NCBI RefSeq assembly: GCF_003334385.1
Contig: NZ_QOWN01000064.1
DNA: 16,737 bases
Reading direction: 5' to 3' (one strand)
Source of the DNA: Escherichia coli
Lineage (GTDB): Bacteria; Pseudomonadota; Gammaproteobacteria; Enterobacterales; Enterobacteriaceae
Below are positions 13,976 to 14,200 of the stretch, piece by piece. The notes under the pieces were generated by a model. It saw only the letters and a list, made by a program, of their open reading frames with translations. It did not search any database and was not told where the DNA came from. Position 1 is the stretch's first letter. Each line of letters opens with the position of its first letter. The position numbers and the translations under genes are program-made.

Positions 13976-14200
13976 TCAACACACTGGCTGTAATGCAGCG
14001 GATACCATGCGGCATTTAGCGGCATTCATCGTACACTCAACGGTTAGCTCTTCATTCGTGGCATTCACCTGAAAGGTCCGGGAGTGTAATTGCGTACATT
14101 TACCACTGAACGAACCTTCAACAAGAACACGACCACGCTGCAAAATACGGAACGGAATTGTTCCCTGAAAAGGCTTTACGGTTACCAGTAATTTCTTCAT
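13976..14200 (-). CDS. Hypothetical 74-aa Cys-containing protein between Rz/Rz1 and cos
   Basis: ATG at 14198-14200 with GGAGGA 5 nt upstream; translation MKKLLVTVKPFQGT...AALQPVC. Same strand as the late operon, starting 24 nt after the Rz stop. No homolog recognised. Confidence 0.55.
   Translation of the reverse strand: MKKLLVTVKPFQGTIPFRILQRGRVLVEGSFSGKCTQLHSRTFQVNATNEELTVECTMNAAKCRMVSAALQPVC

Follow-up and report, generated by a model that had tools for sequence, protein, structure and literature searches.

The minus strand of the window (the whole 16,737-nt stretch of Escherichia coli DNA that was analyzed) carries the late region of a lambda-like prophage, including lambda-type head and tail genes. 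The gene order in the relevant part of this region is holin, a 183-aa ORF, endolysin, two small ORFs, Rz/Rz1, a 74-codon ORF (here called ORF74), cos, Nu1 and terminase A. The features referred to below are:

16588-16725, minus strand: holin gene
16032-16583, minus strand: gene for a 183-aa protein, between the holin and endolysin genes (PHROG 2091/406; DUF1327-containing in the annotation of relatives)
15179-15712, minus strand: endolysin gene
14224-14697, minus strand: Rz (i-spanin), matching PHROG 13, "Rz-like spanin", at E=7.6e-73
14286-14471, minus strand: Rz1 (o-spanin lipoprotein), inside Rz, matching PHROG 3198 at E=1.3e-29
14204-14209, minus strand: Shine-Dalgarno sequence GGAGGA of ORF74, from direct reading of the sequence, with the ATG 3 nt further on
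13976-14200, minus strand: ORF74 coding sequence; 74 aa, 8.2 kDa, pI 9.7, identical to RefSeq WP_000735655.1, "hypothetical protein"
13960-14241, minus strand: exchangeable cassette, containing the final 18 nt of Rz together with the ribosome-binding site and coding sequence of ORF74
13740-13959, minus strand: conserved non-coding stretch between ORF74 and cos, ~220 bp
13705-13716, minus strand: 12-nt cohesive end of cosN, reverse complement GGGCGGCGACCT, likened to lambda cos
13569-13667, unstranded: cosB-like region with three exact copies of CATGTCCGGTT (13569-13579, 13599-13609 and 13657-13667)
13012-13521, minus strand: Nu1-type small terminase subunit, the first gene past cos (PHROG 57/1790; PGAP annotation)
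11112-13097, minus strand: terminase A

ORF74 starts with ATG, runs for 74 codons, and lies 23 nt from the Rz stop codon and 260 nt from cosN. A preliminary description, made from the sequence alone, had recognized a 74-codon late-strand gene with a GGAGGA ribosome-binding site just after Rz/Rz1 and had placed it as the last ORF ahead of cos. The first of these statements is borne out by the sequence reading and the ORF list, and the second by the PGAP annotation, in which ORF74 is the final gene ahead of the cohesive-end site.

The reverse complement of 13705-13716, GGGCGGCGACCT, is the lambda cosN overhang. Between cosN and Nu1, two of the CATGTCCGGTT copies are direct and one is inverted; these repeats are likely to be Nu1 binding sites, arranged as are the R sites of lambda cosB. 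The non-coding stretch at 13740-13959 is common to a phage that lacks ORF74, PhiR12_1 (99% identity), and to Shiga-toxin (Stx) phages with a different terminase (89-97%), and it may contain cosQ-proximal packaging signals. An Rfam search of 13400-14400 returned no match, and the RNA fold of 13720-13990 is unremarkable (z=0.36).

The endolysin gene and Rz are separated by two short hydrophobic ORFs, at 14694-14915 (minus strand, PHROG 4906) and 14840-15055 (minus strand, PHROG 1115). In the PGAP annotation these are hypothetical proteins of 43 and 60 aa, and they are possible additional membrane components of the lysis cassette.

Coding status, fold and family of ORF74

An ORF of this length is within chance expectation, since 43 ORFs of 40 aa or longer overlap the same 5-kb stretch around ORF74. 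The case for a coding function rests on conservation, substitution pattern, a profile match and a confident predicted fold, and not on ORF length. Homologues from E. coli and Salmonella at 62-97% identity retain both the frame and the 74-aa length, and the indels that occur among homologues are in frame. Variable columns are distributed over codon positions 1, 2 and 3 as 25, 22 and 38, with the third position the most variable. Furthermore, dN/dS values (Nei-Gojobori) fall between 0.20 and 0.54 in 26 of 28 pairs. These comparisons show that ORF74 is a genuine gene, that its 8-kDa product is conserved and that purifying selection on it is moderate, and it is very probably a real accessory late gene of the uncharacterized PHROG 2571 family.

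The two pairs with dN/dS above 1 both involve the same homologue, from E. coli CP001846 (L010:3001-3225). The higher of the two ratios is from the comparison with ORF74 of the window, in which this copy has 16 non-synonymous and 2 synonymous differences (dN/dS ~2.6). Relaxed or diversifying selection in that lineage could account for the high ratio, though the numbers are too small for a decision; by a rough estimate rather than a computed test, the changes are too few to be distinguished from neutrality.

AlphaFold2, run with a 27-sequence alignment, models ORF74 as six beta-strands and one short helix, with a mean pLDDT of 90.2 and a pTM of 0.76. The N-terminus, MKKLLVTVKPF, forms the predicted first beta-strand (pLDDT 93) and is for this reason neither a signal peptide nor a membrane helix, in agreement with the earlier statement that the protein has no such segment. 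The sequence contains no lipobox. Indeed, the hallmarks of lysis proteins that were looked for (TM segment, SAR domain, lipobox or signal peptide) are all absent, and the whole 74 residues are modeled as a soluble beta-sandwich. A compact, soluble, all-beta sandwich is thus the high-confidence prediction for this protein.

The preliminary description recognized no homologue of ORF74, a statement overturned by the profile search: ORF74 belongs to PHROG 2571 (unknown function) and has hundreds of relatives, and residues 1-73 match positions 100-172 of the 291-position profile with E=2.8e-28. ORF74 is a single-domain member, consisting of the beta-domain without the helical N-terminal region and C-terminal extension of the long forms; distant small members and the long forms match the same profile. 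A search of 1.84 billion representative sequences with the family profile returned 54 proteins at E<=0.001. Three giant proteins built of repeats (7839, 2680 and 602 aa) were not accepted as relatives, since each repeat contributes ~10 bits or less. Their E-values are artefacts because repeats were summed, and one of the three is a multi-cystatin with QVVAG motifs. After removal of these artefacts, the relatives are small proteins that follow the pattern MKK(L/I)xV...F.V.Q.G..L..D...GK......Y.VDA.D. The commonest form is a stand-alone protein of 68-82 aa with the MKK(L/I)xV start, found in Escherichia, Salmonella, Yersinia, Klebsiella, Xenorhabdus and Enterobacter. A Foldseek search of AFDB50 gave a similar picture, returning only uncharacterized 70-80-aa proteins (from Escherichia, Yersinia, Klebsiella, Xenorhabdus, Salmonella, Enterobacter, Morganella and Erwinia).

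Other searches gave no functional lead. The BFVD structure search with ORF74 returned nothing at E<=0.001, Pfam gave no match even at E<=10 for either ORF74 or a 280-aa homologue, NCBIfam gave no match for ORF74, and the single match in a PDB sequence-profile search (E=1) was disregarded. No PADLOC-DB family matched ORF74 or eight of its relatives; a ninth relative, P0069, gave a weak match to ZorA (E=0.006) that was taken as chance. A literature search by accession, locus tag and PHROG number found nothing on ORF74.

The preliminary description counted five cysteines in ORF74 and called the ORF Cys-containing. The count is four (positions 35, 56, 63 and 74), and cysteine content is not a feature of the family. 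Of the four, only C35 is invariant and C56 nearly so when relatives at 55% identity or above are compared; the number falls to 0-3 in distant members, and the family as a whole ranges from 0 to 5. A disulfide or metal-cluster role was therefore rejected, the cysteines not being conserved across the family. A nucleic-acid-binding role that depends on conserved charge was likewise rejected, given a family pI range of 5.0-9.8. With no catalytic motif and no conserved charge, ORF74 is better read as a protein binder than as an enzyme or a nucleic-acid binder, and it is probably a soluble binding module.

The beta-domain also occurs in larger proteins. The long PHROG 2571 proteins of N15-like phages (Ravinvirus), such as YDC107_5380, are 198-280 aa in length and, like ORF74, are encoded on the late strand between Rz and Nu1. 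Their beta-domain, at residues ~100-170, is 34% identical to ORF74 and has the motifs LLVT, Q-G-RVL, G-K/R and Y-V-DA-D in common with it. The two forms differ in that the long one has a helical N-terminal region of ~100 aa and a C-terminal extension, both missing from ORF74, and no cysteines in the aligned domain. A second arrangement is found in P0069 (L019:4001-4546), in which an ORF74-type domain is fused to a module like the C-terminal ~60 residues of the 183-aa ORF (PHROG 2091), which suggests that accessory proteins of the late operon have exchanged domains. In a third, P0075, an ORF74-type domain is followed by a C-terminus resembling that of phi80 orf66 and N15 gp59. The genes for P0069 and for another distant member, P0078, both lie between Q and the holin gene. 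Found both on its own and fused to different helical modules, the beta-domain is thus a building block that has been shuffled among the accessory proteins on either side of the lysis cassette.

Two further observations concern the neighborhood of these proteins. The C-terminus of orf66/N15 gp59 (phi80, L026, 4353-5081), ...ECFPGGVIWQQCRR, recurs at the end of P0075 as ...LNCRPGGLIWQAIRR, and from this sequence comparison it appears to be another module that recurs in the Rz-cos interval. Next downstream of P0078, and likewise between Q and the holin gene, lies a gene for a GrlR-like protein (PF16518; L021:3826-4149), which is not a usual cargo of late operons.

The existence of longer relatives raises the question of whether ORF74 is a decaying remnant, a functionless leftover domain of an N15-like protein of 198-280 aa. 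That it covers only positions 100-172 of the family profile would fit such an origin, as would the dN/dS of 2.6 in the comparison with the CP001846 copy. However, the stand-alone form is the commonest one across six genera, ORF74 has its own ribosome-binding site, its predicted fold is complete and confident, and dN/dS is below 0.55 in all but two of the 28 pairs; the lone high ratio comes from too few changes, by the rough estimate given above. Decay is on this evidence very improbable.

A dispensable cassette that follows Rz

The clearest comparison for the locus is phage PhiR12_1 (PV340549.1), whose recorded host is E. coli K-12 MG1655. In a blastn comparison this phage matches the window at 99.3% identity over 11001-13959 and at 97.8% over 14242-16236, with 142 bp of unrelated DNA in the place of window positions 13960-14241. 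Lambda is absent from the tblastn matches to ORF74, and the annotated Rz-cos interval of phi80 contains no ORF74-type gene. Because PhiR12_1 exchanges exactly this segment, and because lambda and phi80 are without the gene, ORF74 can be considered a discrete and non-essential cassette. It appears from these comparisons to be dispensable for the phage, with the viability of PhiR12_1 taken from its sequence record alone (a literature search on PhiR12/PhiR46 returned nothing relevant). The preliminary description had proposed that absence of the ORF from a closely related functional phage would count against it. Such an absence is found in PhiR12_1; it supports an accessory role and excludes an essential function in lysis, packaging or the virion.

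The preliminary description had also placed ORF74 in the interval between Rz and cos. There is indeed a late-strand gene in that variable interval, but the constant partner is Rz, and it is the terminase that varies. Among the 70 IMG/VR loci with enough upstream DNA, every one has an Rz homologue just upstream of ORF74, which in 68 ends between about -4 and +26 nt away. In loci with precomputed Pfam labels, the ORF74 homologues follow PF03245 (Phage_lysis) or PF06085 (Rz1), and ORF74 is found after Rz with either a lysozyme or an M15 peptidase as the endolysin. The packaging modules beside these ORF74-Rz loci include Nu1/GpA, Terminase_2/TerL, DUF1441/GpA and HNH+Terminase_4/TerL. The distance from ORF74 to the small terminase gene ranges from ~420 to 1700 nt, with small terminases of at least three unrelated types, and the cargo that can lie in between includes YlcI/YnfO, KilA-N/ORF11CD3, TonB_C, DUF3950 and HNH. 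Judged from these gene orders, ORF74 is anchored to Rz and not to cos.

These results bear directly on the proposal that ORF74 is an accessory packaging factor that helps terminase at the adjacent cos. The gene does adjoin cosQ/cosN in the window, and this member of the family is basic (pI 9.7). However, the variety of small terminases, the occurrence with HNH-dependent cos systems, the distances of up to 1700 nt and the wide range of pI in the family all argue against such a role, and PhiR12_1 has the same cos, Nu1 and A at 99.3% identity without ORF74. A packaging function is hardly credible, and the PhiR12_1 sequence comparison already largely refutes it.

The main rival to an accessory binding role is that ORF74 belongs to the lysis cassette as its fifth component, a cytoplasmic modulator that is co-translated with Rz and tunes the function or timing of holin or spanin. 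A cytoplasmic modulator has a precedent in T4 RIII, which acts on the T holin from the cytoplasmic side. The site right after Rz/Rz1 is invariant in all 70 loci, across divergent cassettes, and such tight linkage could equally signify a lysis-related role. Distant members also border the lysis cassette, in the position between Q and the holin gene. Furthermore, in many relatives the Rz frame runs on across the ORF74 start. This apparent overlap, however, arises only because the Rz stop codon has been lost; the DNA spacing is otherwise identical and Rz is simply longer by 7-8 residues.

Other evidence also speaks against lysis modulation. Rz and Rz1 act through their periplasmic portions, and ORF74 has neither a membrane segment nor an export signal. 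ORF74 does not co-vary with Rz, since the window and locus L008 have Rz proteins that are 31% identical and ORF74 proteins that are 66% identical, with corresponding values of 37% and 78% for loci L005 and L008. In addition, PhiR12_1 has the same cassette minus ORF74, and lambda and phi80 lyse their hosts without it. A role in tuning lysis is rather unlikely on balance.

Expression and the moron question

The preliminary description regarded the Rz-cos interval as a moron position and raised the possibility of effects on host phenotype or phage exclusion. As a classical moron of lysogenic conversion, ORF74 would be expressed from the prophage and would alter the host or exclude other phages, in the manner of lambda bor. 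Several findings are in keeping with this idea. The interval is a hotspot for cargo, as seen in the YlcI/YnfO, KilA-N/ORF11CD3, TonB_C and DUF3950 genes of relatives and in the Tai immunity of phi80. ORF74 is present or absent among otherwise similar phages, and its GC content is deviant (46%, versus 54% in Rz and in the whole window).

Two other traits of a moron in the Hendrix/Juhala sense, its own promoter and its own terminator, were not detected for ORF74. A consensus scan of 13400-14800, which weak promoters could escape, found no sigma-70-like promoter, and a scan between ORF74 and cosN found no terminator-like site. Because of this, and because only 23 nt separate it from Rz, ORF74 is not a classical moron; what survives of the earlier proposal is an accessory gene in a cargo hotspot. 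ORF74 has the hotspot and the presence/absence polymorphism in common with lambda bor and with further morons located between Rz and cos. Bor is an exported lipoprotein, encoded in the opposite direction behind its own promoter and expressed in lysogens. ORF74 differs from it in being oriented with the late operon, with no promoter or terminator detected, and in having neither a signal peptide nor a lipobox; it has no PADLOC match either. Moreover, the variable cargo of the relatives lies downstream of ORF74, before the terminase, and ORF74 is the constant element. Expression as a conversion gene of this kind is improbable.

The late orientation and the 23-nt spacing lead one to expect co-transcription with S-R-Rz from pR' under Q control, which, judged from position, is the simplest expectation for ORF74.

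By its opposite orientation, another gene in the late region of the window has a stronger claim than ORF74 to being a true moron. It lies on the plus strand at ~15824-16084, between the endolysin gene and the 183-aa ORF, and encodes WP_001625288.1, "hypothetical protein"; its counterpart in PhiR12_1 is labeled "DUF1823 containing protein".

Proposed role and comparison with known systems

We propose that lambda-like prophages carry ORF74 as dispensable cargo at the 3' end of their lysis cassette. The protein would be made only with the Q-antiterminated late transcript, alongside the lysis and virion proteins. It would stay in the cytoplasm and bind another protein, being neither an enzyme, a membrane protein nor a nucleic-acid binder, and its non-essential role would be aimed at the host or at a competitor during the lytic cycle. 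This best overall explanation, of a late, soluble, dispensable, protein-binding accessory factor directed at host or competitor, can be given a probability of roughly 0.5. A more specific assignment to counter-defence or inter-phage competition, drawn by analogy, is the likeliest of the roles considered, though still more doubtful than not. One option within it is that ORF74 might counteract an immunity, of host or prophage origin, that is directed at late functions, by analogy with AtiEcA of phi80. A broader and distinctly speculative generalization, which we consider unlikely, is that the beta-domain of PHROG 2571 could be a widespread late counter-immunity or decoy module at the edges of lysis cassettes. 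It would bind host or prophage systems that act on late functions (tail, capsid, terminase or lysis, for example) and neutralize them, with the variable loop 57-66 and swapped helical modules setting specificity. If true, this would provide a second family with the logic of AtiEcA, unrelated in sequence and present in about one quarter of E. coli genomes, including those with Stx phages.

Whatever its role, the gene is common. A search for the 225-bp sequence located it at 1630 places, with up to six copies per genome; 1244 of the 5426 complete E. coli genomes have at least one, so that about one quarter of these genomes carry it, often in several prophages each. At least 1000 contigs encode the exact protein. 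All the listed E. coli records label the gene product "hypothetical protein", and no source names it; despite its high frequency it is without a name, a Pfam family or an assigned function. Carriers include induced or isolated phages, namely ASU11 and many Stx1a, Stx2a and Stx2c phages; phage mEp237 has a distant member of the family, and the record for H-19B stops within ORF74.

ORF74 is an ordinary "hypothetical" accessory gene of a catalogued but uncharacterized family, and not a new kind of system. The value of the finding lies in a very common and cleanly testable gene, one that will not surprise phage specialists. As a real, late-operon-linked, dispensable and modular gene, it is a clean and cheap target for deletion and pull-down experiments. 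Should it prove to be a counter-defence or lysis-tuning factor, the result would bear on the induction and spread of Stx phages and on competition between co-resident prophages. Should deletion have no phenotype, ORF74 would be one more neutral passenger of the recombination hotspot at the lysis cassette.

Two known groups of late accessory genes invite comparison with ORF74. The first consists of the DUF1327/YdfR-type proteins (PHROG 2091/406), represented in the window by the ORF at 16032-16583. Like ORF74, these are uncharacterized accessory proteins of the lysis cassette. Their N-terminal domain is unrelated to that of ORF74, and their site is between holin and endolysin rather than after Rz.

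The second, which is the more relevant precedent, is AtiEcA of phi80. The Rz-cos interval of phi80 contains taiEcA (orf63), which is on the opposite strand and is expressed in lysogens, and atiEcA (orf64), which encodes a 76-aa protein. He et al. (2024, PMC11364771) assign atiEcA to the Q-dependent late operon and demonstrate by experiment that it is a counter-defence gene, one that prevents auto-immunity. AtiEcA and ORF74 are alike in several respects: they are of similar length (76 and 74 aa), soluble, encoded between the lysis cassette and cos, and unneeded for the basic phage cycle, and both belong to the late operon, ORF74 by its position and orientation. Homology between the two was considered and rejected, with an hhalign probability of 0.4% over 7 aligned columns. 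They also differ in that atiEcA overlaps a divergently transcribed immunity gene, taiEcA, whereas ORF74 has no such partner here or consistently in its relatives; in the window, neither the ORF list nor PGAP places a plus-strand gene between ORF74 and cos. ORF74 is not, then, a member of the AtiEcA family, though by analogy it could have a similar mode of action.
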